Assembly: GCA_902797455.1 (NCBI GenBank)
Contig: CADBTE010000237.1
Coordinates: 1 to 39,986, forward strand
DNA length: 39,986 nucleotides
Source of the DNA: an uncultured Planctomycetota bacterium
GTDB lineage: Bacteria > Planctomycetota > Planctomycetia > Pirellulales > Thermoguttaceae
Direction of reading: 5' to 3'
Below the pieces are notes generated by a model that saw only the letters and a list, made by a program, of their open reading frames with translations, searched no databases and had not been told where the DNA came from. Positions 19,046-35,036 of this stretch are shown here, in pieces. The translations under genes and the position numbers were made by a program. Within the stretch, counting starts at the first letter, position 1, and each line of letters starts with the position of its first letter.

Positions 19046-19276
19046 AATCGTCTCGTTCGCTTTTGCGGTGGATGAAAAAGAAGCGGCCCTTCGGCCTTCC
19101 CCTTTTCGGCAGTACTCCCCCTATTGTAAAAAATCGGCTCAAACGACGCAATCATCCCGCCCTCGAACAAAAAAAACGGCTCTTCCCCAAGTGTCCAGCG
19201 CAGGACTATTCCGAAATAACGTCAAATGCGCCATAATAGCCTCTGATCCCGATCACGTTTGACAGGAAGAAAACCG

Positions 19277-20665
19277 ATGAACCGTTTCCACCGATTCCCC
19301 TTGCTTTTGAGTCTCCTCCTGCCGCTGGCCGCGGCGGCCTTCGCCCTGGAAACGCCCAAGAGTCCCCCACTGAGCGATCAAGACCGAACCGCCAATCTTG
19401 ACCGCGCCAAGGAAGCACGACGCCATTGGCCGAGTTTCGGAGAATTAAAGATTCTCTATATGGACGATCTGGGAATCCGCGCGCTTTCGGGCCGCTATGT
19501 CGATCTTTACACCGACTTGCCCTCAAACGAAAAGAACGACGAGATCATCCACCTGCTCGACGCCGCGGTCCCCCGGCTGTGCGAGTTCTTTCATCTTGAT
19601 CCGCGCCAGTACGACGACTGGAAGATCTCCGCTTTTCTTATGACCGACCGGGAACCGTTCGACATCTTCGGCGCCTTCGATTTCAGCGAGGAGGAGATTC
19701 CTGAATTTCCCAACGGTTTTTCGCTCTACGATCGGATTTGGGTCTTCGATAAGAACCAGGTCTACTACAACCGTTTCCTGATGCTCCACGAGCTGGTCCA
19801 CGCCTTTATGCTCCATACCTTCGGCTCTTTGGAACCTCGCTGGTTCACCGAAGGGATCGCTGAGTTTCTCGCCCTCCACCGCTGGGATGGGCAGACCATC
19901 GAGCTGGGAATCTTCCCCGACACACGGGAAGAGGTCGAGGGGTTCGGCCGGATTGATCGCATCCGATCCTTTGTCCAATCGGGCGAAGTCCCTTCGGTGG
20001 AAGAATTGCTCGCCATCAAACCGAAGGCCTTTGACGATGTCTCGTCCTACGCGTGGTGCTGGGCCCTGGTGACCTTGCTGGCGCGCCATCCTCAGTACGC
20101 CGATGCCTTTGGCGCTCTCCCCTTCCTGGCGATGGAGAAGGACCCTAATAAGCCATTTCTCGAACTGCTGGGAAACAGCGCCGGCCGCCTTGCCGCCGAC
20201 TGGCAGAATTTCGTCGAATGGCTTGACTATGGTTTCGATTTCGATCACGCGCCGGACGCGAGTGTGCCGGGTTTCGGTCTGGAGCCCCTCTCCGATGAGG
20301 GAACATCCTTCACTCTCGACGCCGAAAACGGCTGTCTCGCGACCGGTGTCATACTGGAACCGGGAAAAGAGTACCGTTTCAGCGCCTCGGGACGGTTTCG
20401 TGTCGGATGCCAGGGAAAGGTCTATCCGTGCGAAGCCAACGGAATCACCCTATCGTACTTCAACGCTCGTCCCCTTGGGACGCTCCTGGCCGAAATCGTC
20501 CCCGAGAAGGCCTCCTTGAACGAGCTGCCGATTCAGACCGAACCGATCGGCGCGAAAGGAACGCTTACACCCAAAAAACGAGGGGAGCTTCACCTGCGGC
20601 TAAATCTCCCCACAAATCAGATCAAAAACAGCCGGGGGACCTGTACGGTCACGGTTCGGCCGTGA
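19277..20665 (+). CDS. Secreted gluzincin-like HExxH metallopeptidase (DUF1570-like), hypothetical
   Basis: Signal peptide MNRFHRFPLLLSLLLPLAAAAFA. HELVH at 19787-19801 is followed 16 residues later by WFTEGIAEF (HExxH...E, as in MA(E) clan peptidases). AGGAAG Shine-Dalgarno lies before ATG 19277. Confidence 0.6.
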   Translation: MNRFHRFPLLLSLLLPLAAAAFALETPKSPPLSDQDRTANLDRAKEARRHWPSFGELKILYMDDLGIRALSGRYVDLYTDLPSNEKNDEIIHLLDAAVPRLCEFFHLDPRQYDDWKISAFLMTDREPFDIFGAFDFSEEEIPEFPNGFSLYDRIWVFDKNQVYYNRFLMLHELVHAFMLHTFGSLEPRWFTEGIAEFLALHRWDGQTIELGIFPDTREEVEGFGRIDRIRSFVQSGEVPSVEELLAIKPKAFDDVSSYAWCWALVTLLARHPQYADAFGALPFLAMEKDPNKPFLELLGNSAGRLAADWQNFVEWLDYGFDFDHAPDASVPGFGLEPLSDEGTSFTLDAENGCLATGVILEPGKEYRFSASGRFRVGCQGKVYPCEANGITLSYFNARPLGTLLAEIVPEKASLNELPIQTEPIGAKGTLTPKKRGELHLRLNLPTNQIKNSRGTCTVTVRP

Positions 20666-20672
20666 GAGAAAA

Positions 20673-20939
20673 CTAATCTTGCAGCGCCTTGTACTGGCGC
20701 AGAACATCTAAAAAAGAGGCGACATCTTTGCGAGCCGTTTCGGCGTCGACTTCATAACGCGCCGTGAGGCGTTCGACCAGTTCGTCCTCGGTCACTTCGC
20801 TGTGGAGCTGCTCCACCAGGAAGGCCCCGACGGCATTGACCGTGATCATCCCGTTGAAGTCGACCTGCGCCTTTCCAAAGGGGACTAAAATCGTCGTATC
20901 ATCCAGCGTCCGAAGAACAAATTCAGAATTTAGTTTCAT
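20673..20939 (-). CDS. PqqD-family protein (RiPP recognition element-like peptide chaperone)
   Basis: 88 aa: FVLRTLDDTTILVPFGKAQVDFNGMITVNAVGAFLVEQLHSEVTEDELVERLTARYEVDAETARKDVASFLDVLRQYKAL. The size and pattern are typical of PqqD/RRE winged-helix proteins. Confidence 0.85.
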   Translation of the reverse strand: MKLNSEFVLRTLDDTTILVPFGKAQVDFNGMITVNAVGAFLVEQLHSEVTEDELVERLTARYEVDAETARKDVASFLDVLRQYKALQD

Positions 20940-20973: not shown

Positions 20974-21471
20974 TCACCGGAAGATCCCCCTCACCCGGCG
21001 TTTGAGATAATGATAGACTTGTCTGGGAAAACGCAGCGCCATCCATGCCTCGCTGTAGAGGCGGTAAAGCCGGCTGTCGCAATGGATGACCCGCGAGCCG
21101 CGCCGGATCGAGCGAACCACCGCCAAAACCTGCTCACGATCAATCCCCCGCTCCAGCGCTATCTGGTTATCGCCGCAGAGAGTATACCGCTGCCGCGGCC
21201 CGGAGACCCCCACTATTCTATGCAGAACATAGGTTCCGTCCAGACGCCGATAGAGAATGATATCACCTCGGCGGAGCTTTTTCTCCCCTGGGGCCTCTAG
21301 AACGACTGTGTCACGCCCCCCGCGCAGGGTCGGGAGCATACTGCTTCCGGTGGGGGTGATCGAGACGCGCTTACCGGCCGCCAACAGTTCCCCGGCCAAG
21401 GCGAAAAAGGGCTCGGAACCGACCAAAAGCGTCGTCTTTTCACCATCCGGGGGGGGAACGGAATCACTCAT
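20974..21471 (-). CDS. S26-family (SipW/ER/archaeal-type, Ser-His) peptidase lacking a membrane anchor
   Basis: Box B GSSMLPTL, box C RGDIILYRR, box D YVLHRIV (His where LexA/UmuD and SPase I carry Lys) and box E CGDNQIALERGID. No hydrophobic TM stretch at either end. ATG 21471 overlaps the upstream stop as ATGAGTGA. Confidence 0.8.
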   Translation of the reverse strand: MSDSVPPPDGEKTTLLVGSEPFFALAGELLAAGKRVSITPTGSSMLPTLRGGRDTVVLEAPGEKKLRRGDIILYRRLDGTYVLHRIVGVSGPRQRYTLCGDNQIALERGIDREQVLAVVRSIRRGSRVIHCDSRLYRLYSEAWMALRFPRQVYHYLKRRVRGIFR

Positions 21472-22258
21472 CGCGTACCCCCGGGGGCAGCTGTTCGAGG
21501 GGCCGCGCGTCACGCATCGCGGCGTACGCGACTCGGACCGCCCCAGTGGTCGGTGTGCAGCTCAATTGGAAGATCGGGATTGTCTTGAGAAGCCTGACCA
21601 TTCGGTCGAGCGCATCCTCCATCTGCTCGCCGCCGGCGGGACGAAGCGTCTGTGACAAAAAGGGATAGACCGCCTCGGACGGCGTCATGGGATGGATCGT
21701 ATCCTCGATCCCGCGGCGCAGGAAGGCAATCGCCGCCAAAGGAACACGAAGCGGGCGATTCAAGTCACTCTTCCCCGACCAGGGGGTTCCATAGACATAC
21801 CACGCGCCGTCGACCAAACGGATGACCGGTTTGTCATCGTTGAGGATAAAGGCGCGGTCACGGCCAAAGTGGCGGCACCAAAGCTGGGTATGGGTCGACT
21901 TGCCAACACCGCTGTCGGCGGAAAACAGATAGGCCCGCCCGTCACATACCACGGCCGAGGCGTGCAGGCCAATACCGTTGAAGTCGAGAATCGAACGGAT
22001 AAAGTCGATTCCGGTGAGAATATACAGAAGGGAATCGGGGGTCAGATGGGGGTTTTCGCGCAGCTTCCTCTCAAAGAAATCATCGGGGATATCGATCACC
22101 AGATCAACCTTGGGAGGTGGGCTTTGGCTCGGCAGCTCATACGCCCGGGCCTGCTTATACAGACGCCCCCGGCCGGAATCGAACGAGACTACCAGATCGG
22201 CGATTCGGTAATACGTCCGATGACCGGCGCGGGGGTTATCTTGGGGAAGGATCGGCAC
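21464..22258 (-). CDS. HPr kinase C-terminal-domain-like P-loop kinase (HprK-related)
   Basis: LHASAVVCDGRAYLFSADSGVGKSTHTQLW (compare HprK/P G-x-SG-x-GKS), FILNDDKPVIRL (compare HprK ADD motif) and YGTPWSGKS. The P-loop is encoded at about 21890-21916. GTG start 33 nt after the giant-gene stop. Confidence 0.8.
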   Translation of the reverse strand: MPILPQDNPRAGHRTYYRIADLVVSFDSGRGRLYKQARAYELPSQSPPPKVDLVIDIPDDFFERKLRENPHLTPDSLLYILTGIDFIRSILDFNGIGLHASAVVCDGRAYLFSADSGVGKSTHTQLWCRHFGRDRAFILNDDKPVIRLVDGAWYVYGTPWSGKSDLNRPLRVPLAAIAFLRRGIEDTIHPMTPSEAVYPFLSQTLRPAGGEQMEDALDRMVRLLKTIPIFQLSCTPTTGAVRVAYAAMRDARPLEQLPPGVRDE

Positions 22259-22291: not shown

Positions 22292-25200
22292 TCAATCCAT
22301 TACCGGTATATCGTAATCGAGCAGTTCGCTGTCAATTTTCTCTTCGGCAGCGGCATCTTCTTCGAAGTCAAAGAGCCAATCGGTACGATCCGACTCGGCC
22401 GCGAAGGGTACAGCCGCCAAGGCGGCGGGAACCGCGTCGTCGCGAAGAGCGTCGAGCGCCTCGACAATCACCGCGTCGGAGGGAGAACTCTGCGCGGCGG
22501 CCGACGGCCGCTCAAAGGCCGAGACGACGAAGCAGTCGGACTCCAATGCCGAGGAGACAATCGAATTGGGACGGACTGTCCAGCCGAGAAGGTAGGGATC
22601 GAACCCCGCGTCTTTGTAGAAACCACCCGTGCGGTACGAGACCCCTCGAATACCGTCATAGGACCACCCGTAGCCGGCCAGGAAATAGGACAGGTCATAA
22701 TCGCTGATCGTCGTGGCTCCGGGATTGGTATCGACCAGGAGAATTTTGTATTTCCCGACAGGTCTTTGAGCGTAGTACTTGAGGAAGAAGGCCAAATCGG
22801 CATCGTCCACAGCGCCGTCGTCGTTGACATCAAACCGTACGGGGAAGTAGGTGGTTGTGTTCAGCGACTCGGTCACCGTATTGACCCCATTAGACTGATT
22901 GATCGACTGGGAATCTTTTGAAACCAACAAATTGAACGTCTCCGAGTTGGTGAACGCCTGGAAAACCCCGACATTCGCCAGGTCGTCCAGAAAGATGCCG
23001 CCCCCTTCCACCGGCGCCATCTTGACACGGGCCAGCAGCACCTGCTTCCCGGAGGCGACCGTCACCGGCGTGCCGGCGAACCCCGAGACGGTGACCTTGC
23101 CGGCGGTACTGTCGTCGGCCGTCACGGTGAACCCGGTGCCGGCTTCCACGTCGCTGTAGACATAGTAACCCGCGCGGAACGACAGTTCGGCGGAGAATTG
23201 GGTGATCGTACTGGAGGTACTCGGGGCACCCCAGATCTCGACATAGAAGCTCGACCACTCGTCGAGCCAGTCATAGACGAAGTTTTGATCTTTGATCTGA
23301 TCAACGGTCATCGCTGCGGAAGCGACCGTCCCGTTCAGTCCGCGGATCACCACGGTCATCGTCCCTTCCGTATCTTTTTCGTAGGAGGGATCCAGCCGCA
23401 GAACCGTCTTCCCCTTGACGGCGTAGACCGACGGTTCGCCGGTGCCGCGGTCCGCCGCCGAGACCAAAAGGTACGGGGCGGCGAGCAGTTCACCGTCCGT
23501 CCCCTGGAAGTTGACCCCATCGGCGTCGTCACCCGCCAGGGTGTTATAGACAGGAAGATTGAAGCGCGAATCACCGTCTTTGCCGAGCGCCCAATAGAAC
23601 TTGGAGCGTCCCGCGTTGTTCACGGTAAAGACCGCGTCGAGCTTTCCGTCACCGTTGATATCGCCAAGGGTCAGACCGCCGACCTCACCGATTTGGTCGA
23701 TCCCGCCGTTGAGCGTCACGGGGGGGTTGTCGCCGGGGAACCCTTCGTCCGGCCGATGGTTATTCCCCCCCGCTTCTCCAGACCCCGACGTGTTGAGGAC
23801 ATAGGTCACGGTGGAGAAACCCTCACCGGTCTGGAGGACGTACCCAATCGCGGCGTCCAGCGCTCCGGTTCCCTTACTGAGGAAAACGATATCCGTCAGT
23901 CCATCGCCATTGATATCGCCGCAGGCGACACTGACCGGCTGATAGGGATTATAGAGAAAAACGTACTGACCGCGGGGGACCGCCGAGATAGTTTTCCTCA
24001 CGGCGGCATCGACACTGCCGGTGGTATTGTCGAGGACAACGATCGTCGAAGCGGCGTTCCCCGTGCGGCAGACGGTGTACAGAACATCGGCGTACGGATC
24101 GCTCCCCGCGCACAGAGCCCCCACCCACAGCGCCGTGAGCTCGTGGGAGGAGGTGAATTGCGATTCCACACAGCGGTTGGAGACAATCATCGCTCCCACC
24201 TCCTGGAGCGGATCGATCACCGAGAGATAAAGCCCCGATTGCTCACTGCCCTGGGCGGTGTGGTAGAACCCCACCACAATCTGATCGGCCGGACTGGCAT
24301 CGGTCTTCCCGAGAACATCACCCGAGGCGATCAATGTCGTGTAGGCCGTTGAGGGAACCGACTCGAAGGTAACGGTACAGGAGCCCTCACTGACCACCCC
24401 TTCAGGGGTAAAGCGGCCATCCACCCCCTGGTAGAAGATACCGACTTTCCCCTCATAAAGGACCGCCACGTCGATTTTATCGTCTTTCATACCGGCCGTA
24501 CCGGTACCGAAGTAGCCAAAGACAGCGGACGAAGCCGTTCCGTTGAGATTGCCCAGCTGAATCGGCTGAGCGCTTAAATCGGAATCGGCAAAGAGCCAAA
24601 TGCCCGACGCGCCGGCCACCAGAAGATCGAGCGAGCCGTCGCCGTTATAATCCCCTTCCCAGGAAGCGAAGTAATCGGGCTGAGTCACCAGGGACACCGG
24701 GGAAAAGGGGGACTCACCGCCGGTGGCGTTAAAGAAGACATAGTCCGTTCCGGAGACGGCAATCAAATCGGTGGAGGAAACGGAAGCGAAAGCCCCCGAA
24801 GCCATCGCCACAGACCGGGTGGACGAGGAGAAACCGCTGAAGGCGACCGCGGAAGCATCGCCAAACGAACCGGTCCTGGCCGCTTCGTCGAGCGACAGCG
24901 TCAGGGAAACAAGCTTTTTGGTATTGCAGTAGTAAAGATTCTGTCCGGAGGCGACCGCACCGAGCGGTTCGGTCATCGAGATCGCCGTGCCGGCGGTATA
25001 ATTCCATGACTGAACAGCGTACGCGAAGCTGGCCTTGCCGTACGAAACAGAGACATCGTAGGCGTTAAAGCATGTCCGACCGGCGCCCTTATTGACGGTC
25101 ACCAGGAACGAGTGGCCACCCTCGGTGAGGGAACCAACCAGTCCTTCCCCATTGACGGTCCCGTAGGGGGAACCGGTGGTAGCGGTAAAGGAACCCGCCG

Positions 25201-25834
25201 CGCTGCAGGAGAACAGGACAATTCTGTCACAGTCCGAAGTGCTGACACCCGGAACTTTGGCCTGCATGCGAACGGCCGCGCCGCCGTCGATCTGGACGAC
25301 TTCGACCGACCAGGGAAGGAAAACGGTTGCCGAAGGCGCAAAGACCGAAAGCGAGATCGGATCTGAGGTCTTCGTTAAAGAGAACGAACCGTTCGACCAG
25401 GAGTAAAGTGAAAATACAATATTTTGGGTACTGGAGGTATCGGCGACCAAAAGATCGAATTTTCCATCGCCGTTGAAATCCCCCAGCGCCGCTGCGATGT
25501 CGACTTGAGAAAGATTCTTGTCGATGGCGGTCGTTTTCGCCGCGCCGTAGCCCCCCGCCGCGTCTTTGAGGTAGACGGAAACTGTCGAATCGGCCTTATT
25601 GACCGCGATCAGATCGTCGAAGCCGTCATGATTAAGATCGGCGGCGCCGATCAGATCGACATTCTCTTCGAAATCGACAATCGCCGATCCCGATTCGTAG
25701 ACATTACGCTCGGGAAAATTCTCAAAGCCCTGCCAGTCACCCACGGCGAGGAGAATCCGTCCCTCGAGGGGTTCCATTCTCATCGAACGGAATGAATGAC
25801 TGCGAGAGGAACGGGAGACAGAATGTTTCTTCAT
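22292..25834 (-). CDS. Giant surface protein 1 (about 1180 aa): LEPR-XLL-like N-terminus, FG-GAP/VCBS integrin-like repeats, cohesin-like + dockerin-like C-terminal modules
   Basis: ATG 25834 is preceded by AAGGAAG. The N-terminus is MKKHSVSRSSRSHSFRSMRMEPLEGRILLAV. Ca-binding FG-GAP loops are present (DLNHDGFDDLIAV, GDFNGDGKFDLLV, GDYNGDGSLDLLV, GDINGDGLTDIVF, GDINGDGKLDAVF). A cohesin-like block lies at about 23000-23200 and dockerin-like FDVNDDGAVDDADLAFFLKYY at about 22675-22850. Acidic C-tail. Confidence 0.85.
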   Translation of the reverse strand: MKKHSVSRSSRSHSFRSMRMEPLEGRILLAVGDWQGFENFPERNVYESGSAIVDFEENVDLIGAADLNHDGFDDLIAVNKADSTVSVYLKDAAGGYGAAKTTAIDKNLSQVDIAAALGDFNGDGKFDLLVADTSSTQNIVFSLYSWSNGSFSLTKTSDPISLSVFAPSATVFLPWSVEVVQIDGGAAVRMQAKVPGVSTSDCDRIVLFSCSAAGSFTATTGSPYGTVNGEGLVGSLTEGGHSFLVTVNKGAGRTCFNAYDVSVSYGKASFAYAVQSWNYTAGTAISMTEPLGAVASGQNLYYCNTKKLVSLTLSLDEAARTGSFGDASAVAFSGFSSSTRSVAMASGAFASVSSTDLIAVSGTDYVFFNATGGESPFSPVSLVTQPDYFASWEGDYNGDGSLDLLVAGASGIWLFADSDLSAQPIQLGNLNGTASSAVFGYFGTGTAGMKDDKIDVAVLYEGKVGIFYQGVDGRFTPEGVVSEGSCTVTFESVPSTAYTTLIASGDVLGKTDASPADQIVVGFYHTAQGSEQSGLYLSVIDPLQEVGAMIVSNRCVESQFTSSHELTALWVGALCAGSDPYADVLYTVCRTGNAASTIVVLDNTTGSVDAAVRKTISAVPRGQYVFLYNPYQPVSVACGDINGDGLTDIVFLSKGTGALDAAIGYVLQTGEGFSTVTYVLNTSGSGEAGGNNHRPDEGFPGDNPPVTLNGGIDQIGEVGGLTLGDINGDGKLDAVFTVNNAGRSKFYWALGKDGDSRFNLPVYNTLAGDDADGVNFQGTDGELLAAPYLLVSAADRGTGEPSVYAVKGKTVLRLDPSYEKDTEGTMTVVIRGLNGTVASAAMTVDQIKDQNFVYDWLDEWSSFYVEIWGAPSTSSTITQFSAELSFRAGYYVYSDVEAGTGFTVTADDSTAGKVTVSGFAGTPVTVASGKQVLLARVKMAPVEGGGIFLDDLANVGVFQAFTNSETFNLLVSKDSQSINQSNGVNTVTESLNTTTYFPVRFDVNDDGAVDDADLAFFLKYYAQRPVGKYKILLVDTNPGATTISDYDLSYFLAGYGWSYDGIRGVSYRTGGFYKDAGFDPYLLGWTVRPNSIVSSALESDCFVVSAFERPSAAAQSSPSDAVIVEALDALRDDAVPAALAAVPFAAESDRTDWLFDFEEDAAAEEKIDSELLDYDIPVMD

Positions 25835-26132: not shown

Positions 26133-29100
26133 CTAGAGAAGATCCTCCTCCAGACCATCCCCGGCAAAGAACCCTTCCTCGTCGCTTTGACTTTCGGAAC
26201 CTTCACCCAAGGCAAAGTCGTACTCGTCATCCGACTCGACGATCTGGCTAAAGGACTGTGCCGCCATGAGTTCGTCGACCGCGGCGCTGTGCCGCGCCTC
26301 CAGCGCCGACTCGTCGTACCGGCGGAGATTGCCGATCGCCAATCCCGAATCGGCCAGCGATTGGGCCAAACGGGTATCGAGGAAATAGACCGAATGATCC
26401 TCCGACGCGGCGGCCGGCCCCACTTCGATCTTCGAAGCGGCCATCGCCTCGCAAAGCGGTGTGTCGACACAGATCGCCGTCATCGAATTGACTGCCCCGG
26501 CGGTCGACCCCCCAGCGTCTCCACCGGTCAGAGTATCGAGAATCGCCCGTGCCGCGGCGATATCCTGCTCGGTCAGTTCCTTGCGCTGACCAACCTCCAC
26601 CCCGTAGTACATCACATCGGCGATATCGTCGGAGTGCCCCTCGGCGTTGAGGTAATCGAAAGTGGTCATCACCGTCATATAGGCGGCACTGGTCGGATCG
26701 AATCCGTAGAAGTGCCCCAGCTCGTGGAGGATCACCGTGTAGAGATCGTACCGCGAAGCGTCGACAGGATCACTGAGCTGCGAATACCAGAGTTTCCCGG
26801 CCGCGTCGTCATCGATGTAGATGATGCCGCTCTTGATCACCCCGTTGACATCGACCTGCGTGACCTGCGCCTGGGCCAGCGTCTCGGAATCGGCAAAGTC
26901 TTTCACCGCCAGCGTCACCGAGACGGACTCATCCAAACCGAGCGCCTCAACCCACGCCTGGTTGGCCGCGTCGTAGACGGTGCCGACCAGAGCGATCTGA
27001 TCGGTGCTGAGCGTCGTCCCGACATAGCGCTGCGTGAAGGTCTCGGGAAGAAGGATCGTGCGATTCCCCGAGACGACATCTTCCTTGGTCGCTCCGTAGA
27101 GACTCAGGAAGTAAAGGAGGTCGGCATCGTCAATCGATCCGTCGCGGTCATAATCGGAACCGACTTTGTAAGAATTGCCGGCAATACCGTGGCCGTACGC
27201 GACGAGGAATTTCGCCAGGTCGGCGTCGGTAATCGCGCCGTCGTCATCGGTATCGTAAGGATTCGCCCACAGCTCGACGGTCTGCTTCAGACCAACGCTC
27301 ACCTCGGTATTTCCCGAGAGGGTATAGAGGTCCGCCGCGGTGAGCTCCCAAGACAGGGCGATCGGATCGGCCGTGGCGCTCCAAGCGACGGTGTCCCCTT
27401 CACCTGACTGCCACGCCACCCGGGCCAGGAGAACCAGTCCCGTGCCCGCGATCCCACCGTCGGCCGCCAAGGCGCTGACGGTAATCAGGCCGTTGTCGGC
27501 ATCGATCGAGTAAAGACCATCGCTGAACATCGAGCCGAACTCGACACTCGCCGCGGTAAAGTACCCCGGGGTGTAGGAGAACTGCGCCGAGGCCCCCAGG
27601 TAGGTCTCCAGCTCAGAGGCCTTAACCCAGATCTCGGTGAAGTGGGACTGCCACTCGTGGAGGTACTCGGTGTTGCTTACCAGGGTACTGTCGACACGGC
27701 TTTCGTCGGTGGCCTGAGCCACCGTACGGAGATAGACGCCATTGTCGGCAATCACCTCGATCCCGCTTAAACCGACCACGCGCTGCGGCACGACCACCCC
27801 CTGATTGAGGCGGATCTGCGTATCGTTGAGCTTGGTATCGAGCGTCTCCCCCCTGGGAACAAGGTTCAAGCCCTCTTTAAAGGGGGTGATATTCTGAGAC
27901 GGATACTGCTTGGTCACCGCGCCGATGGTGATCGAGTGATCGGCCATGCACTTCGTCCCGCTCTGGCTGGTCGCCGCCTTGACGACCACCTTCATACGGC
28001 ACACGAGGTAGGCCTGGGAACCGTCCTTCACGTTAAAACCGCCCGTACTGGAGAGCGAAACATCACGCAGACGCGCTCCCAGGTCGTAGTCTTCCGCGCC
28101 ATTGACGTTGATCTGGCCGTCGTCGTACATGTCGCTGTGCATGCCGAAGATCGGATTAACGCCGATCAATCCAGTCTCATCCTCATCCCAGATATGAATC
28201 GACTCAATGTTCGAGGAGTTGTGATTCAGCTGGAAAGAAACCATCGTCAGTCTGAAGTCTTCCCCACTGAATTTCCCGTTGGTATCACGGAACCAGACCT
28301 CGAGGTAGTACCAGTAGTTATCGTTAACCGCGTCGTAGTTTCCGAGGGTATCGACGTCCGTCGTCTCAAGCTTTTCGTAGTCCGCCGTTCTCCCGTTGAG
28401 GTTCGCCGTCGTCGCCGTATTCGTCCCGTAGAGGATCAGATTCGCCGTGCACTGCTCCTCGTCGGCCAGTTTGACCTGGAACAGATTCGAGGAAACCGAA
28501 TTGGTCCCGTCACTGACGGTGATCTTGGCATAGACCGGGGCGGTATTGAGCGTCGAGGCGTAATCGGCGGTCTTCAGCTCGATACTGGTATTGCCGCTGG
28601 AGTCGGTCACCATTCGATACTGTCCGACAAAGTGGGCGGCGCCATCGTTCCAACTGACGTCGGTCCACTCGGTCGCGTAGGCCAAATCGGCAAGTTTGCT
28701 CACCCCCTGCGAGGTGGAATAGATAGCCGCCGTCGTGTTCTCGGCTATGTAGGCGCCAGTGAAATGGCCGGAGAGCGGGAGCGTCAAAATACCGTCGTAG
28801 GATCCGTCGGCGTAGGCGAAGTGGGTCGTCTGCACGGTGTAGGCGGTGACAAACCGAGGCGCTTCATACCAACCTTCCACGGCCACAGCGGCTGTCGCGG
28901 CATCGGAATCAAGACCGTGAGTGTCGGCGACGGTGAAGTTCACCGCGAGAGAAACGGTTGAACCGATCGCCAGCTTCGGGAAGAGCGCGCGCAGCTTGGC
29001 GATATCGAAGACGACCGTCTTCGAATCGGTCAACGACCAGCAGTCGGCCGGCAGATCTTTGACCGTGCCGCCGTCCTCGTAGGTGATCGAGGAGACCGCC

Positions 29101-32100
29101 GCGGTTTGGGCATAGTCATCGATATCTGGGTCTTCCGCGCCGCTGGTCAGATCGAGCGCAGTCTGCGTACCGGCGGCCAGATCGACCGTTCCGGTGAGCG
29201 TTGTCGAGGCAACCGGGGCGTCGTTCTTCCCGACAACGGTGACCGTCAGGGTCTTGATTCCTTCTTTGACACTCGCGCCGGCGGAGTCTTTCACCAGGAA
29301 GGTGACCGGGATCGCGACGGTATCGTCCTGCGCCAGCTTTAAGAAATCGCTCGTCAGCGCGGCAAGATCGATACTCACCTCACCGGTGGAAGCGACCGAG
29401 ATCGCGCCGGGAGAAATCGTGAACGTATGCCCATAGGCCGTCACACTCGTCGGAACCGAGACATTGGCCACCGACAGCGCATTCCCATCAGGGTCGACCA
29501 CACCGTCGAGAATATTCAGGATATCTTTGTCGGTGTCGTACTTCACCGTCTGGTTGATCAGATTCACGTCGGCGGTATGGTCGTTCGCGCCGTACGGGGC
29601 GTCGTTGACACCGATAACGTTGAAGTCGTAAGCAATCGACTCGGTCACCGCGCCGGCCTTGTCACAAACGACGAACGAAATCGAATCGGCCGCGGTTTGA
29701 CCGGCCGGGAGGTTCGGAACCCTTTCGGCGCGCCCGGCGACGTTATAGCTGCACGAGGTGATCCCGCTGGCGTTTTTGACCAGCGTCAGCGTCGCGCCGG
29801 AGGCGAACGCCTGAGTGAACGTATTGCCCGACCATCCCGCGGTCTGGGCGGTAATCGTTGTCCCTTCGACGGTCACACTCTGGAAGTAGAGGGTAGTATC
29901 GTTCAAGTCGATATCCTCGGCGAACATCGCGGGGGTGATCGACACCGGTGCCGAAGCGGTTGATTCCTCGATATTGGCCGAACCGGTCGGGGCGTCGGCC
30001 TTTTTGGTCGGCGCTTCGTTTTTGCCCAGTACCGTCACGGTCAGTGACCTTTCGCCCTCGGCGACAACCAGTCCCTGATCATCGCTGATGGTAAATTTCA
30101 CCGCAATTTCTGCCGACTGACCAAGCCCAAGCTTCACGAAATCGCCGGTAAGCTTGTCGACATCGACCGAAACCGTCCCATCGGCGGCAACAGTGACCGC
30201 CCCCTCGGAGAGGGTGAACGTGGTTCCGTAGGCGGTGACCGTCGCGGGGACGATCCACGTCGTGCTCAGACTTCGACCTTCGGGATCGACAACGCCGTCG
30301 AAGATATTCAGCGTCGCCGAGCCGGTGTCGTACACCACCGCGCCGGTGGTCAGATCGACCGAGGCGGTATGGTCGGCCGCGCCGTAAGGAGCGTCGTTGA
30401 TACCGGTGATATTGACGGTGATGGGATTGTTCGTCGAGGGGACATCCCAGACGACACCGTCTGAGGTGTAGCCGTCGATCGTATAGTGGTAGGTCACGTG
30501 CAGCTCGGCCCCATCGGCGAGGAAGGAGAGGAACGTCCCGTCGTTGCTGAAGGTAAACATCTTCGACGCGCCGTCGACCGACGCGGCCTCGCTGAGCTGC
30601 TGGATAAACGCCGTGTACCGATCCGCCGTCCAGCCAAGATGATCCTTGATCTGCTCGCCGGTATAAGTTCCGGTCGAATCACTTAAGGCAACCGTATGAA
30701 CCGGAAGCTCGCCGAGCGTCTTGAAACGCACATCGGTAACAGTCGCGGTCGCCTTGTCGGGATCGATGAAGGTGTTTTCCGACAGATCCTTCGAAATGAG
30801 CGCGACATCTTCGGTGATCGCGGGCAGATCGATCGCGGCGGCCTCGACACCACTTTTGTCTTGAATGGTGAGATTGATCGTGTGATCCTGAACGTCGGCC
30901 TCACCGTCGAGATTCTCAGAGGTGAAGGCAAGAACATAGTCACCCGGAGGCAGAATCGGCGAGGGCCCCGTCACCGCGTCTTGTTTCACAAAGAGCGTCA
31001 CCTTGCCGCCGGTTGCCTCCATCTTGAAATACTGCGCCAGGTCAGTATCATCATTGGCCTTCGTGACAGTAAACTCGTACGCCTGGCGCCCGCTGCCGGG
31101 AAGCGCGTCACTGAAGAAACCGAGCCGCTCGGTCGCCGGAATCCACCCCTCGACCGCGGGAGACTTATTGGTGATCTTCAAGGTTGTCGGATTTTCGGGA
31201 TCCATCTCAAGCGGATCGAACCGGCCGACCACCTCGACGGCGGCGTCGGCGGTGTCCGAGGTCAGCCGGCCGTCGGAAACTTGGTAGGTGAAACCGACGA
31301 GGCGGGTGTCGCCTTTCGCCAGATCCCACTTCAGGGCATCGCCGGCGGCGGTGTAGATGAGGACCTGTTCCCCACCGACGATCGAGACGGTCAGATACCC
31401 GACATACTGATCGTTGTCATACAGATCGATCACCTGAGGATTGGTCTGCGTCGCGGTGACCGCGACATCGTTGATTTTGACCAGCGTGACCGGGTCCTTG
31501 AAATCAACATCGTTCGAATTGGCCCGCCAGTCGATCACGACAGAATCGCCGGCGTCGACCGAAACGGAGATATCCTGAGCGGTCGGCGCCTGGTTTGTCC
31601 CGGTGATCGTCACCTGGATATCTTCGATAGTCGTTCCCCCCTTGCCGTCACTGACTTGGAAGCTGTAAGCCAGCGTAGCGGTTACCGTCTCGGGGAGCGC
31701 CTTGAAAATCTCCGAGCCGGGCGTGAATACATACTCTTGCCGCGCGGCGTCCCAAGTCAGCCAGGTCGAGAAATCGGCCCCATCGACAATGGCCGCGATC
31801 CCCTCCGGGGCGTTCCCGCTGAAGACCACATCTTCGCCGGACGGACAGCTGTTAAGCGTATAGACCAGCTCGGAGGCCGGCGTATCGGCGTCGGTCACTT
31901 TCGAAGAGGCCGAAGCGGCCGTATCGACGTCGCTTAAGGCGATATCGACCGTGCCATGCGCCACCGGAGCGTCGTTGACACCGGTAATCATCACTGTCAC
32001 GTCGCCGCCGCGAAGCGTACCGGAAATCGCCTCGCCGTCGATCACCAAGTTAGTCAGCGAATAGCCGAACGACAGAGTCAGCGAGTCTCCCTCGGCGAGA

Positions 32101-35036
32101 TACTGCAGTATCTCGCTGGCGGCGGTATCGAGGCGGAAGAGGAAGTTGCCAGCGCTGTCGATCGTCGCGCACGAGAGAAGATGCGCTTTTTCGACATCGG
32201 TCAGGTCCGCGGCTCCCGCCCCCGCGACATCGTCTAACCTCAGCGTGGTCGAGAAATCGTACGAATCGACCGTCGCCACCTCGCCGCCGCTTTTTTGAGC
32301 GGTCACACTAACGATTTTAGTGGTCAGATCCACCGCCGCCTGATAGCCGGTCTCGGGAGTGTAAACCTGATCCTCGGTCAGTGTCCCCCCTTCGATCACC
32401 GCCGGGGTCACGGTAATCGTGTAACCGACGATCGACAGGGTGAAGGTCCTCTGTCCGGCATCATCAGCGTGGGCATCGGTGTCGGTATTGGCGTAATCGA
32501 AGGTCACCGTATAGTCGCCGTACCACTCGGCCGGAATCGTCGCCAGGGCGTCACGATTGACCTGGAGCTCGACCCAGCCGTCACGGCCGTAAACAGGATC
32601 GGCAAAGCGAAGAAGACTAGCCGCGTCGAGCGTATGCTCATCGTTTTTAATCTCCTTGACACAGAAGACATACGTCTGGCCGGCGTCACTGTGGAAGGTG
32701 ACCTTCCCATCCAGCGTCTTCCAGCCGGTCTCGGTCCCGAGGGCATTCACCTCTTGGTCCGGGATATCCACAAGCTGGAGCTTGTCGAAGGCGCCGACGT
32801 AGGTATAGCTGACCGCGGCACTGTTGGACATAGCACCGTGATTGTCGGCCATCTGATACTCAAGCCCGCCAAGCTCGATAGCTTCGGTCCCCCCCGCGGG
32901 TGTCGTCCAGCGGAGCTGCTCGCTGTAACCGTCGCTCAGCGTGTAGAGAAGCGCTTTGTTCGCGGTATCGAGCGTGTAGGTTCCGTAACCGGCGACCTCG
33001 ACCGAACTTTTGCCGGGGGCGAACTCTCCGGCCTCCCAGTCAATCACATAGGTCGTTCCGCCAATCGTCACCGCCGCCAGCGCGACGGTATCACTGTAGT
33101 CTATATCTTCGCCTCCGCAGGGAACAGCGAGCACGATCGCAGCGGCCGAGTCGGGGACGGCGGTATAGGTCTGGTCGATCGCCTCGGCGACAGGCGCTTG
33201 ATTCGTACCGGTGACAGTCACCGCGACAGTCTCTTCGGTTGTCGCGCCAAGCTTGTCGGTCACCGTGCAGGTATAGGTCAGGATGAACTTCGCCCCGATC
33301 GGAAGCTGTTTGAGGAAATCAACACCCTCAGGCACCTCGAAAACATACTCTCCCGAGGCACTGTCAAAAGTCAGCCACGAAGAAAAATCAGTCCCCACCG
33401 GGACGATAGCCTCGATCCCTTCCGGCGCGTCTTGGAAGGTCGGCGCGCCGACCGAATTCACCGCCGAGGAGAGGACATCACCGCGGTCGCGGTCGGTCGT
33501 GTTTGTTTTTTCGGCGGCGGAAACCGTGGTATCGATCAGCGCGATTTGAACACTGGCGTGGGCTTCCGGTGCGTCATTGACACCGAGAACGTTGAAATCC
33601 CAAGCGGCGGACTCCCCGCCGATATTGGTCATCGAGAACCAGACCGGATCGATGTCTCCCTCGGGAAGATTGACGGCTTTGTCCCACCGGCCGTTCATCC
33701 GATAGGTCATCGAGGTAATGCGGCCCTCGCCGTCGAGAACCAGGTCAACTATCGCGCCGGACGGCAGAACGATCGTGTCGGACGTCCCGTCCCAATCGGT
33801 CACGGAGTTTCCCTCGTAGATCGTCAGGGAGGTGATCGCGGCCCCGTCGCCAAAACTCCAAGCCGGGTCGTAGGTCGTCTCGTTCTTGGCGGTTTCTCGG
33901 GCGTTCCCGGCGATATACCGGACAAAGACGTCGGTCGGCGGCATCTCGTTGCCGGCGTTATCGGTCGCGGTGACCGTCATCGGGTAGTCGCCGTTGTTCA
34001 GTTCACCGGTGCGGTCATCGCGGAAGAAATCCTCAAACGAGACCGGCTGACCTTCAACAAAGACGCCGACGATATTGGTGATCCGTTGTCCTTCCGGTGT
34101 CGTACCGCCGTCTTCGAGCACCGCGTCATAGACGTCGTCGCCGACTTTCACCGTGGCAATGCCAACCCCCGTATCATCGATGACGGGGATATTGAATTCA
34201 GCCGGATCGTTGACCACCATCGGATTGTCCGGATCGGTCCACGCCGGATCGATCTCGGGGGCATCGCTGTCGTACTCAAGCTTGACGCTGGAAGTATCAC
34301 GGATGCCGAGCTTGATGAGCGACAGGTCATCACTGGTCATCACGCCATCCATATTGACGTCATAGACCGTGCTGTAGACATTGCTCCACTGGGAAATATC
34401 GACATCCTCGCCGAACATATGGCGATAGATATCGATCGAGGCGGGATTCCTCCCGCCGGAGAAATAGGCGTTCGTGTACGAGACGAATTTGAAGGTATCC
34501 TGGATCTCGAAATCGTCGATGACCCCATTGTGGTTGGCGCTTCCGGGGGTAAAGACCGAGCAAGTGAAGGCGCCGGTGAGTCCCTCATCCTTCCCCGAGA
34601 TGAAGAGCTTATATCCCTCTTCATTCGGCGTCACGCGAAGGATAACGAACGAGCTGTTCGTCCCACCGGCATCGGTCAGCATCCCGCTTTTGATGATCTG
34701 CCACCCGGTGACCTGGTCGTCGAGGGTGATCGCCGCCGGATCGAGCACGGACGGCTCGCCGGCTTTTCCGCTGACGACAACACCAACGAGAAGATCGTCC
34801 GTCCCCGCGGTCTGGCCGAAGGTCAGCTTCACTTCCGAGGGATTTCCGACATCCGAGACATAGCCGTACTCCACGTTGGCTTCCGGGGTATCGACAATAT
34901 CCCACCCATTGGGTGTCGCGGTGAGCAAATTCCGATCTTCCAGCGGCTCCATCTGCAATCCGCGCTCGCGAATCGGCCTCATCCGACCTTGCAGACGAGA
35001 GAAAATCCGTTCCTGAAGATACTTTTTCACACTCAT
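26133..35036 (-). CDS. Giant surface protein 2 (about 2967 aa): LEPR-XLL-like N-terminus, many VCBS/cadherin-like Ig repeats, cohesin-like and dockerin-like modules, C-terminal matrixin-like HExxH region
   Basis: ATG 35036 gives MSVKKYLQERIFSRLQGRMRPIRERGLQMEPLEDRNLLTATP. Repeat junction motifs recur: GVNDAP (three times), GINDAP, GTNQAP (twice), GKNEAP, GKNDAP and GWYEAP. Dockerin-like loops are YDVNMDGVMTSDDL (about 34300-34365) and DTDDDGAITDADLAKF + DYDRDGSIDDADLLYF (about 27090-27265). HELGH lies at 26712-26726. Acidic C-tail. Confidence 0.9.
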   Translation of the reverse strand: MSVKKYLQERIFSRLQGRMRPIRERGLQMEPLEDRNLLTATPNGWDIVDTPEANVEYGYVSDVGNPSEVKLTFGQTAGTDDLLVGVVVSGKAGEPSVLDPAAITLDDQVTGWQIIKSGMLTDAGGTNSSFVILRVTPNEEGYKLFISGKDEGLTGAFTCSVFTPGSANHNGVIDDFEIQDTFKFVSYTNAYFSGGRNPASIDIYRHMFGEDVDISQWSNVYSTVYDVNMDGVMTSDDLSLIKLGIRDTSSVKLEYDSDAPEIDPAWTDPDNPMVVNDPAEFNIPVIDDTGVGIATVKVGDDVYDAVLEDGGTTPEGQRITNIVGVFVEGQPVSFEDFFRDDRTGELNNGDYPMTVTATDNAGNEMPPTDVFVRYIAGNARETAKNETTYDPAWSFGDGAAITSLTIYEGNSVTDWDGTSDTIVLPSGAIVDLVLDGEGRITSMTYRMNGRWDKAVNLPEGDIDPVWFSMTNIGGESAAWDFNVLGVNDAPEAHASVQIALIDTTVSAAEKTNTTDRDRGDVLSSAVNSVGAPTFQDAPEGIEAIVPVGTDFSSWLTFDSASGEYVFEVPEGVDFLKQLPIGAKFILTYTCTVTDKLGATTEETVAVTVTGTNQAPVAEAIDQTYTAVPDSAAAIVLAVPCGGEDIDYSDTVALAAVTIGGTTYVIDWEAGEFAPGKSSVEVAGYGTYTLDTANKALLYTLSDGYSEQLRWTTPAGGTEAIELGGLEYQMADNHGAMSNSAAVSYTYVGAFDKLQLVDIPDQEVNALGTETGWKTLDGKVTFHSDAGQTYVFCVKEIKNDEHTLDAASLLRFADPVYGRDGWVELQVNRDALATIPAEWYGDYTVTFDYANTDTDAHADDAGQRTFTLSIVGYTITVTPAVIEGGTLTEDQVYTPETGYQAAVDLTTKIVSVTAQKSGGEVATVDSYDFSTTLRLDDVAGAGAADLTDVEKAHLLSCATIDSAGNFLFRLDTAASEILQYLAEGDSLTLSFGYSLTNLVIDGEAISGTLRGGDVTVMITGVNDAPVAHGTVDIALSDVDTAASASSKVTDADTPASELVYTLNSCPSGEDVVFSGNAPEGIAAIVDGADFSTWLTWDAARQEYVFTPGSEIFKALPETVTATLAYSFQVSDGKGGTTIEDIQVTITGTNQAPTAQDISVSVDAGDSVVIDWRANSNDVDFKDPVTLVKINDVAVTATQTNPQVIDLYDNDQYVGYLTVSIVGGEQVLIYTAAGDALKWDLAKGDTRLVGFTYQVSDGRLTSDTADAAVEVVGRFDPLEMDPENPTTLKITNKSPAVEGWIPATERLGFFSDALPGSGRQAYEFTVTKANDDTDLAQYFKMEATGGKVTLFVKQDAVTGPSPILPPGDYVLAFTSENLDGEADVQDHTINLTIQDKSGVEAAAIDLPAITEDVALISKDLSENTFIDPDKATATVTDVRFKTLGELPVHTVALSDSTGTYTGEQIKDHLGWTADRYTAFIQQLSEAASVDGASKMFTFSNDGTFLSFLADGAELHVTYHYTIDGYTSDGVVWDVPSTNNPITVNITGINDAPYGAADHTASVDLTTGAVVYDTGSATLNIFDGVVDPEGRSLSTTWIVPATVTAYGTTFTLSEGAVTVAADGTVSVDVDKLTGDFVKLGLGQSAEIAVKFTISDDQGLVVAEGERSLTVTVLGKNEAPTKKADAPTGSANIEESTASAPVSITPAMFAEDIDLNDTTLYFQSVTVEGTTITAQTAGWSGNTFTQAFASGATLTLVKNASGITSCSYNVAGRAERVPNLPAGQTAADSISFVVCDKAGAVTESIAYDFNVIGVNDAPYGANDHTADVNLINQTVKYDTDKDILNILDGVVDPDGNALSVANVSVPTSVTAYGHTFTISPGAISVASTGEVSIDLAALTSDFLKLAQDDTVAIPVTFLVKDSAGASVKEGIKTLTVTVVGKNDAPVASTTLTGTVDLAAGTQTALDLTSGAEDPDIDDYAQTAAVSSITYEDGGTVKDLPADCWSLTDSKTVVFDIAKLRALFPKLAIGSTVSLAVNFTVADTHGLDSDAATAAVAVEGWYEAPRFVTAYTVQTTHFAYADGSYDGILTLPLSGHFTGAYIAENTTAAIYSTSQGVSKLADLAYATEWTDVSWNDGAAHFVGQYRMVTDSSGNTSIELKTADYASTLNTAPVYAKITVSDGTNSVSSNLFQVKLADEEQCTANLILYGTNTATTANLNGRTADYEKLETTDVDTLGNYDAVNDNYWYYLEVWFRDTNGKFSGEDFRLTMVSFQLNHNSSNIESIHIWDEDETGLIGVNPIFGMHSDMYDDGQINVNGAEDYDLGARLRDVSLSSTGGFNVKDGSQAYLVCRMKVVVKAATSQSGTKCMADHSITIGAVTKQYPSQNITPFKEGLNLVPRGETLDTKLNDTQIRLNQGVVVPQRVVGLSGIEVIADNGVYLRTVAQATDESRVDSTLVSNTEYLHEWQSHFTEIWVKASELETYLGASAQFSYTPGYFTAASVEFGSMFSDGLYSIDADNGLITVSALAADGGIAGTGLVLLARVAWQSGEGDTVAWSATADPIALSWELTAADLYTLSGNTEVSVGLKQTVELWANPYDTDDDGAITDADLAKFLVAYGHGIAGNSYKVGSDYDRDGSIDDADLLYFLSLYGATKEDVVSGNRTILLPETFTQRYVGTTLSTDQIALVGTVYDAANQAWVEALGLDESVSVTLAVKDFADSETLAQAQVTQVDVNGVIKSGIIYIDDDAAGKLWYSQLSDPVDASRYDLYTVILHELGHFYGFDPTSAAYMTVMTTFDYLNAEGHSDDIADVMYYGVEVGQRKELTEQDIAAARAILDTLTGGDAGGSTAGAVNSMTAICVDTPLCEAMAASKIEVGPAAASEDHSVYFLDTRLAQSLADSGLAIGNLRRYDESALEARHSAAVDELMAAQSFSQIVESDDEYDFALGEGSESQSDEEGFFAGDGLEEDLL
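28856..30404 (-). repeat. Three B-type repeats of about 125 aa in giant gene 2
   Basis: GINDAPYGAADHTASVDL...VLGKNEAP, GVNDAPYGANDHTADVNL...VVGKNDAP, and a third copy ending VEGWYEAP. Shared strings include N[IL][FL]DGVVDP[ED]G and VTAYG-x-TF[TS][LI]S-x-GA[VI][ST]VA. Confidence 0.6.
30405..31982 (-). repeat. Intragenic super-module copy 2 (about 526 aa) in giant gene 2
   Basis: Runs from GVNDAPVAHGTVDIAL to just before GINDAPYGA. It has the same four-block order as copy 1 (EDIDYSDTVAL / NDVDFKDPVTL; GDYTVTFDYANTD / GDYVLAFTSENLD; FLFRLDTAASEILQYLAEGDSLTL / FTFSNDGTFLSFLADGAELHV). Confidence 0.65.
31983..33584 (-). repeat. Intragenic super-module copy 1 (about 534 aa, four Ig-like blocks) in giant gene 2
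   Basis: Runs from GVNDAPEAHASVQIAL to just before the next GVNDAP. It is block-by-block collinear with copy 2, e.g. APEGIEAIVPVGTDFSSWLTFDSASGEYVF versus APEGIAAIVDGADFSTWLTWDAARQEYVF, and both contain TVTGTNQAP/TITGTNQAP about 125 aa in. Confidence 0.65.

Follow-up and report, generated by a model that had tools for sequence, protein, structure and literature searches.

We examined a stretch of 39,986 nucleotides (nt) from an uncultured Planctomycetota bacterium of the Thermoguttaceae (NCBI GenBank assembly GCA_902797455.1, contig CADBTE010000237.1, positions 1 to 39,986 of the forward strand), referred to here in its full length as the window. Its two longest open reading frames (ORFs) lie head to tail and encode very large repetitive proteins, giant 1 and giant 2, which begin with a similar short leader. 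Directly downstream of giant 1, and in the same direction as both giants, three tightly spaced genes encode an ScmC-family P-loop protein, a soluble peptidase-like protein of the S24/S26 fold and a PqqD-type recognition element of the kind found in systems of ribosomally synthesised peptides that are post-translationally modified (RiPPs), a RiPP recognition element (RRE). This trio is followed by a convergent gene (Table 1). Close homologues of the window's proteins come from named Thermoguttaceae, and its sequences recur in ruminant-associated assemblies. A sequence-only reading of the window had proposed that the leader belongs to the LEPR-XLL domain and that the trio is a candidate for the missing machinery that recognises and cleaves it.

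The giant 1 N-terminus reads MKKHSVSRSSRSHSFRSMR-MEPLEGRILL-AV and that of giant 2 reads MSVKKYLQERIFSRLQGRMRPIRERGLQ-MEPLEDRNLL-TA, so that the shared, non-canonical leader described in the sequence-only reading, a basic stretch followed by MEPLE[GD]R[IN]LL, is present in the translated ORFs at exactly the coordinates first given for it. When the pattern [LM]E.LE.R.[LM]L was run against the six-frame translation of the window, the two giant N-termini were the only matches, and none of 300 windows simulated with a first-order Markov model contained any match. The first 30 residues of the giants hold 7-8 lysines and arginines. The claim that these leaders lack a classical Sec h-region and a twin-arginine motif was likewise confirmed, as we found neither a run of ~10-15 hydrophobic residues nor the twin-arginine translocation (Tat) consensus S/T-R-R-x-F-L-K in either leader. 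No uncharged run exceeds 6 residues within the first 60 of the giants, whereas such runs reach 12-18 in two Sec-type proteins of the same neighbourhoods taken as controls, and the maximum Kyte-Doolittle hydropathy over 10 residues is 1.3 and -0.1 versus 2.6-2.9 in the Sec-type controls. Besides the leader, the giants have in common only a cohesin/dockerin-like module of ~200 amino acids (aa; 32% identity over 206 aa by BLASTP, E = 3e-14) and acidic C-terminal tails. In giant 1, which matches Pfam FG-GAP_3 (5e-19), the module lies near the C-terminus ahead of the acidic tail. A homologue search with the first 400 aa of giant 2 returned a single match, a 93%-identical fragment (P0241), and no further loci with tagged giants.

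A 'planctomycete extracellular' motif with the consensus RRLxxExLExRxLLA was described as a putative export signal in 2004 by Studholme, Fuerst and Bateman (consensus as given in PMC8567305). In Tuwongella immobilis 52 proteins carry it, among them 8 of the 10 longest, of which several were found in the SDS-soluble envelope fraction (PMC8567305). The corresponding Pfam family, PF07595 (Planc_extracel), was the sole family match for both leaders and for an orthologue of giant 2 (...FSLESLEDRLLLTAVP...) at a second locus, L007, with scores below the gathering score of 25.5 in each case: 12.7 bits for giant 1 (profile positions 5-18 of 20), 20.9 bits for giant 2 (E = 2.7e-4, positions 5-20 of 20) and 14.4 bits for the orthologue. 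The giants resemble members of this family in having, at the extreme N-terminus, basic residues ahead of an ExLExRxLL core that lies within ~40 residues of the start, in lacking an h-region, and in that the carriers are the largest repetitive proteins, of an extracellular planctomycete type (FG-GAP, Cadherin_4, VCBS and dockerin-like). They differ from it, beyond their sub-threshold scores, in the replacement of the first leucine of the core by methionine, in a proline at +2 (MEPLE) and in a poor match to the upstream 'RRL'.

The proposed identity with the LEPR-XLL domain did not hold. NCBIfam model NF012209 (LEPR-XLL, model name LEPR-8K; 24 positions, cut-off 17 bits) gave no match at E<=10 with the whole giants or with N-terminal fragments of 30-70 aa, whereas two synthetic canonical LEPRxLL N-termini run as positive controls scored 26.9 and 33.9 bits, and we rejected this candidate by model. 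The leaders and LEPR-XLL are both short N-terminal tags of huge repetitive proteins with an LE-P/x-R-x-LL appearance, but the arginine of the giants stands three residues after the proline (EPLExR) and not directly after it. Taken by their sequences, the leaders are divergent members (MEPLE for LExLE) of a known tag type, neither new nor, by model, LEPR-XLL, which corrects the family assignment from LEPR-XLL to the Planc_extracel type. In the literature that we searched, no paper assigning a receptor or protease to the planctomycete tag was found. For LEPR-XLL, too, we know of no receptor.

The gene content predicted downstream of the giants, a kinase, a SipW-type S26 peptidase that looked cytosolic and a leader-binding RRE, proved largely correct at the level of folds and families. 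The ScmC-like protein matches TIGR04249 at 2e-6 with 27 bits versus a cut-off of 125, so it is not the equivalog, and a precomputed PF27840 assignment exists for an identical protein. Its GxGKST motif (GVGKST in the window) is invariant in the ScmC alignment, and its AlphaFold2 model (mean predicted local distance difference test score, pLDDT, 91.7) finds PEPCK and HprK/P as its best Foldseek matches (E ~1e-5). The name 'HprK-like kinase' is reasonable at the level of this modelled fold, with kinase activity as a prediction. The PqqD domain is clear-cut (PF05402, 5.7e-17, 62.3 bits versus a gathering score of 23.4); its binding to the leaders of the giants is a proposal of the sequence-only reading.

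The peptidase-like protein has the S24/S26 fold with a serine nucleophile, a histidine general base and a GDN box, and S44 (SM.P), H84 (HR) and D101 (GD[NA]Q) are invariant across 35 homologues. It is SipW/ER-like and falls below the family cut-offs, with 32.2 bits against archaeal signal peptidase I (TIGR02228, cut-off 51.85) and 24.1 bits against SipW (NF046067, cut-off 190). The best Foldseek matches of its AlphaFold2 model (pLDDT 87) include SpsB and human SEC11A/C (E = 2.5e-4 to 9e-4) and LexA (~5e-3), as well as UmuD. No transmembrane segment or membrane anchor was found in this protein, in agreement with a cytosolic location; in the model the N-terminal helix is amphipathic, as is a basic helix at the C-terminus (residues 134-164). 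PDB sequence searches with the S26-like and ScmC-like proteins gave nothing meaningful.

In hundreds of genomes the genes for ScmC, PqqD and the S24/S26-like protein stand next to one another as a conserved group of three, and the conserved order around the homologues is (NTP_transf_5)-ScmC-PqqD-S24/S26-like-ABC exporter(-NTP_transf_5). A scan with the ScmC alignment over one genome per GTDB species gave at least 598 matches, the best 80 of which were examined for taxonomy and gene order. Essentially all of these 80 come from gut or rumen Clostridia, apart from two metagenome-assembled genomes (MAGs) labelled Bacteroides, and ~50 of them have the order ScmC-PqqD-S26 with or without the ABC exporter and NTP_transf_5 genes. 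Both of the latter stand at L004, L090, L091 and many Clostridial loci, and NTP_transf_5 alone at L007. A metagenome scan with the window ScmC recovered gut Firmicute-type loci only and no new planctomycete contexts.

Peptides of 35-50 aa are encoded upstream of ScmC in at least 13 loci, for example MKKPYEKPELEITRFETEDIAYSVPDPSGMEGIDLD; the small ORFs listed in Table 1 have 33-54 aa. Their leader follows the pattern MKK.Y..PE[IL]E[IV]..FE.EDVI..S, which is lasso-like (Y/F-x-x-P...F-x-x-E-D-V/I...S), and their cores are acidic and contain tryptophan or tyrosine (..DEDYDEDWTPIG, ..SDWDETNM, ..GGDDGWQDI, ..GSDATQDDWE). Given these small precursors with YxxP leaders beside the cassettes, the ordinary substrates of the cassette are therefore small peptides. 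The cassette is a RiPP-like system related to the kinase/nucleotidyltransferase/PqqD accessories of lasso peptide clusters, in which an HprK-like kinase and a nucleotidyltransferase modify the C-terminal serine (PMC7533575). Compared with the SynChlorMet and lasso-accessory modules (ScmC, PqqD, NTP_transf_5, HprK-like kinase and ABC exporter), the window has ScmC and PqqD. Lasso clusters have a B2 protease where the cassette has the S24/S26-fold peptidase, and neither a lasso cyclase nor a B2 protease was found in the few cassette loci with Pfam-annotated genes. A radical SAM gene is absent from most canonical cassette loci. The whole looks like a widespread RiPP class of gut and rumen Clostridia with the S24/S26-fold protein as candidate leader peptidase; we found no experimental characterisation of the cassette, or of a RiPP class combining PqqD, S24/S26 and kinase, in the searched literature.

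Two further contexts of these genes were observed. On a JGI contig (L001, 7489-10432) ScmC, S26-like and PqqD genes are accompanied by one for a radical SAM protein and by a Cys-rich 63-aa ORF (MKKSYQKPVMTFMRLRPEEKLAVCEW...), a neighbourhood that links the cassette to SynChlorMet-type radical SAM clusters. Homologues of the S24/S26-like protein also occur without ScmC or PqqD (L002 10001-10459 and L003 9194-9649), beside an ABC transporter and capsule genes or beside FtsH, so the peptidase family is broader than the cassette.

We then asked how far the tag and the cassette go together. Loci with the cassette, 1.63 Mb in all, contain the tag just three times, with two occurrences in the window and one at L007. 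The expected co-occurrence of motif and cassette is thus largely absent, the cassette being chiefly Clostridial with precursors of its own and the tag, within these loci, confined to the window lineage and L007; this comparison was made over cassette loci rather than genome by genome across Planctomycetota. At L004-L006 (GCA_028695965.1), also from Thermoguttaceae, the cassette is accompanied by a canonical small precursor (...EEYTAPVCAVLSFQVEEDVTQS...), and no tagged protein lies less than 10 kb away. A profile built from the cassette leaders gave negative bit scores on three giant N-termini (the two of the window and that of L007), with the best local alignments off MEPLE, and no match at E<=10 across the window and L007. 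An apparent likeness of residues 40-62 of the giants to the cassette leader (TPEANVE, IVDFEEN) was rejected, as it scored negative bits and fell on different parts of the profile. With this leader-profile mismatch, and with a cassette that has small precursors of its own, the view of the trio as the tag's missing recognition and cleavage machinery is not supported.

The window copy of the cassette is unusual. Its order is ScmC-S26-PqqD instead of the usual ScmC-PqqD-S26, neither an ABC exporter nor NTP_transf_5 lies next to it, and no small precursor was found in the window or at L007 by pattern, profile or inspection of intergenic ORFs. The window PqqD aligns normally with the PqqDs of loci that have YxxP precursors and is closest to that of L004. 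The window and L007 have in common giant 2, AP_endonuc_2, Wzy, ScmC (57% identity), PqqD and S26. At L007 the tagged giant lies within 3 kb of the cassette and is divergent from it, with an esterase and NTP_transf_5 between; giant 1 is absent there, while in the window it stands directly upstream of the trio and NTP_transf_5 is missing. These shared sequences point to a single ancestral neighbourhood that was later rearranged. Owing to this shared ancestry, the two cases are to be counted as a single association. Between phyla, ScmC proteins are 45-48% identical, a value that, together with a habitat shared with Clostridia, is compatible with horizontal acquisition of the cassette.

Taken together, these data favour, with a probability of about 70%, the explanation that the window combines a known planctomycete tag with a trimmed RiPP-like cassette and that the two are adjacent by inherited synteny. 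The tag (a basic stretch, [L/M]ExLExRxLL and no h-region) would be the one typical of very large repetitive planctomycete surface proteins, and its most likely role is in export or surface display, by way of a general, genome-wide planctomycete pathway rather than a locus-specific one. The trio would be a truncated and reordered copy of the (NTP_transf_5)-ScmC-PqqD-S24/S26 peptidase-ABC exporter cassette. From homology, the PqqD domain of a normal cassette would bind the small YxxP...F..EDV leader, the kinase-like ScmC would modify the acidic core together with the nucleotidyltransferase, and cleavage of the leader by the cytosolic Ser/His peptidase would precede export by the ABC transporter. 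The window lineage would have lost NTP_transf_5, the exporter and a recognisable linked precursor while purifying selection continued, and the small precursor that its trio probably continues to serve would be unlinked or undetected. The position of the trio next to the giants would then be synteny inherited in one Thermoguttaceae sublineage, perhaps with co-transcription, and not a functional pairing.

Several observations weigh against this explanation. The trio begins 33 nt past giant 1, has the same orientation and is not separated from it by a terminator, so that co-transcription of the trio with a tagged giant is likely. The sole such signals found by consensus scan, a terminator-like hairpin and, behind it, a promoter-like site, fall between giants 2 and 1 (Table 1) and suggest, as sequence features, that giant 1 and the trio could form a transcription unit of their own. 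The trio has lost its partners and a detectable precursor, yet it remains under purifying selection, which a change of substrate would also explain. For the motif occurring independently of the cassette, the support comes from the published number of tagged proteins and from a single Thermoguttaceae counter-example. Finally, a precursor is detectable in only ~1/4 of canonical loci, so its absence from the window is weak evidence either way.

One alternative is that a Clostridial cassette, once acquired horizontally, is decaying and that the trio is what remains of it, with no current function, as the missing partner genes and precursor might suggest. A related Thermoguttaceae MAG (L089, GCA_017652365.1) also carries one in-frame stop in ScmC (2578-3345, ILD*HGIG) and one in giant 1 (11-2542, APSTS*TITQ); these could be assembly errors, as the MAG is fragmented, or early pseudogenisation. 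However, dN/dS for the trio genes against their 85-91%-identical L089 counterparts is 0.12-0.29, similar to neighbouring genes, all catalytic and invariant residues of the trio are retained, and at least 14 contigs from several samples carry copies that are identical and intact. We therefore consider a functionless remnant unlikely.

It is also conceivable that the basic stretch of giant 1 stems from faulty annotation and that translation begins at the methionine of MEPLE, in which case the protein would start with the motif itself. Public gene calls on identical DNA give giant 1 either 1180 aa from M1 or 1161 aa from this methionine (M20; starts at 25834 versus 25777 in the window and 982 versus 925 in L119-L124), and a methionine stands directly before EPLE in both giants. 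Nonetheless, AAGGAAG precedes M1 of giant 1 while no Shine-Dalgarno-like sequence was found before M20, giant 2 has a well-placed AAGGA upstream of its M1, and in the 93%-identical variant P0241 the frame upstream is preserved, the changes being conservative only. The L007 orthologue of giant 2 has leucine where this methionine would stand and no methionine next to the motif, so the basic stretch must be translated there from an upstream start. PF07595 members, moreover, normally carry basic residues ahead of the core. These features favour the upstream starts (M1) and make an artefact quite unlikely.

The trio could instead have been co-opted locally, with PqqD binding the MEPLExRxLL leader of the co-transcribed giants and the Ser/His peptidase, perhaps with ScmC, processing it. 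The arrangement of the trio 33 nt behind giant 1 would fit such a role, as would the missing small precursor, NTP_transf_5 and exporter, the changed gene order, the continuing purifying selection and the tagged giant less than 3 kb from the cassette at L007. The likeness of MEPLE to the xxP-hydrophobic core of leaders bound by RREs is superficial. The conserved aromatic residue at P-3 of true precursors is R or Q in the giants, the register after the proline differs and the cassette-leader profile does not match. Nor does the window PqqD deviate from the PqqDs that go with YxxP precursors. The L007 giant is transcribed divergently with an esterase gene in between, and through shared ancestry it adds no second association event. 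Cytosolic removal of an export tag from a protein of 1000-3000 aa before export would, in addition, defeat the purpose of the tag. This role for the trio is very unlikely in our view. That the trio acts on the acidic C-terminal tails (phosphorylating or trimming ...ESDRTDWLFDFEED... and ...ESDDEYDFALGEG...) and not on the tag is more doubtful still: canonical precursor cores are acidic with Trp or Tyr, both tails are of similar composition and HprK-type kinases in lasso clusters modify C-terminal serines (PMC7533575), but the resemblance is compositional only, no leader-like element lies upstream of the tails, the giant 1 tail is no better conserved in L089 than the rest of giant 1, and acidic tails are common among secreted repetitive proteins. 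Co-option in this lineage, counting both the tag and the tails as targets, is possible with a small likelihood.

The analogy with tapA-sipW-tasA of Bacillus subtilis holds in that the gene for an S26-fold peptidase (SM.PT, HR, GDN) neighbours those for large secreted proteins. SipW itself is anchored in the membrane, and its cleavage sites lie in classical Sec signal peptides. The window protein, in contrast, has no transmembrane helix, reaches 24 bits where the SipW model asks for 190 and is a member of a family that is part of cytosolic RiPP-type cassettes, and the window giants lack a Sec-type signal peptide. A dedicated receptor and protease for a 20-year-old tag would have been valuable, and the removal of the trio as a candidate for general machinery saves wet-lab effort. 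Should the RiPP-type trio after all have been re-targeted to the co-transcribed giants, at the MEPLExRxLL tag or at the acidic tails, which we regard as very improbable, it would be, to our knowledge, the first case of a giant protein (1000-3000 aa) matured under the guidance of an RRE, and the first experimental handle on the planctomycete export tag. As a side result, the ScmC-PqqD-S24/S26(-ABC/NTP_transf_5) cassette with its acidic YxxP-leader precursors may be useful to natural-product researchers.

Table 1. Features of the window, and small precursor ORFs of other cassette loci (positions in the respective locus).
Feature	Position	Strand	Description
Giant 1 coding sequence	22292-25834	-	1180 aa; FG-GAP/VCBS repeats; ORF and translation, public 1180-aa gene calls
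Giant 1 basic pre-motif stretch	25778-25834	-	MKKHSVSRSSRSHSFRSMR; translated or not depending on the start codon chosen
Giant 1 leader core	25748-25777	-	MEPLEGRILL; aa 20-29; pattern match
Giant 1 cohesin/dockerin-like module	22667-23272	-	aa 855-1056; shared with giant 2
Giant 1 acidic tail	22292-22400	-	...ESDRTDWLFDFEEDAAAEEKIDSELLDYDIPVMD
Giant 2 coding sequence	26133-35036	-	2967 aa; Cadherin_4/VCBS repeats, dockerin-like module, HELGH motif, acidic tail; public 2967-aa gene call
Giant 2 basic pre-motif stretch	34953-35036	-	MSVKKYLQERIFSRLQGRMRPIRERGLQ; AAGGA ribosome-binding site 7 nt before ATG; frame kept in P0241
Giant 2 leader core	34923-34952	-	MEPLEDRNLL; aa 29-38; pattern match; invariant in 93%-identical P0241
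Giant 2 cohesin/dockerin-like module	27093-27668	-	aa 2457-2648; shared with giant 1
Giant 2 acidic tail	26133-26260	-	...ESDDEYDFALGEGSESQSDEEGFFAGDGLEEDLL
Terminator-like hairpin with T-run	25999-25982	-	gap between giant 2 and giant 1; consensus scan only
Promoter-like site	25955-25927	-	follows the hairpin; consensus scan only
ScmC-family P-loop protein	21464-22258	-	264 aa; GVGKST; HprK/PEPCK-like fold; starts 33 nt past giant 1 stop
Soluble S24/S26-fold Ser/His peptidase	20974-21471	-	165 aa; 8-nt overlap with ScmC end
PqqD-type RRE	20673-20939	-	88 aa; 34 nt past the S24/S26-like gene; PF05402
Small precursor ORF, L004	11708-11866	-	
Small precursor ORF, L008	9773-9907		
Small precursor ORF, L017	9728-9847		
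Small precursor ORF, L024	7417-7521		
Small precursor ORF, L051	8457-8576		
Small precursor ORF, L071	9510-9632		
Small precursor ORF, L084	9785-9904		

A few further features of the window were observed. The tails of both giants are strongly acidic and alike, with a composition reminiscent of the acidic cores of the small cassette precursors. Giant 2 contains a zinc-protease-like HELGH (HExxH) motif (aa 2771-2775, 26712-26726 on the reverse strand, ...DLYTVILHELGHFYGFDP...) ~200 aa before its C-terminus, in a region covered by no Pfam or NCBIfam family. The convergent gene beyond PqqD (19259-20665, forward strand) encodes a 468-aa protein with a classical Sec signal peptide and an HELVH motif, whose only family match is a weak one to flagellinolysin (26 bits versus a cut-off of 205).

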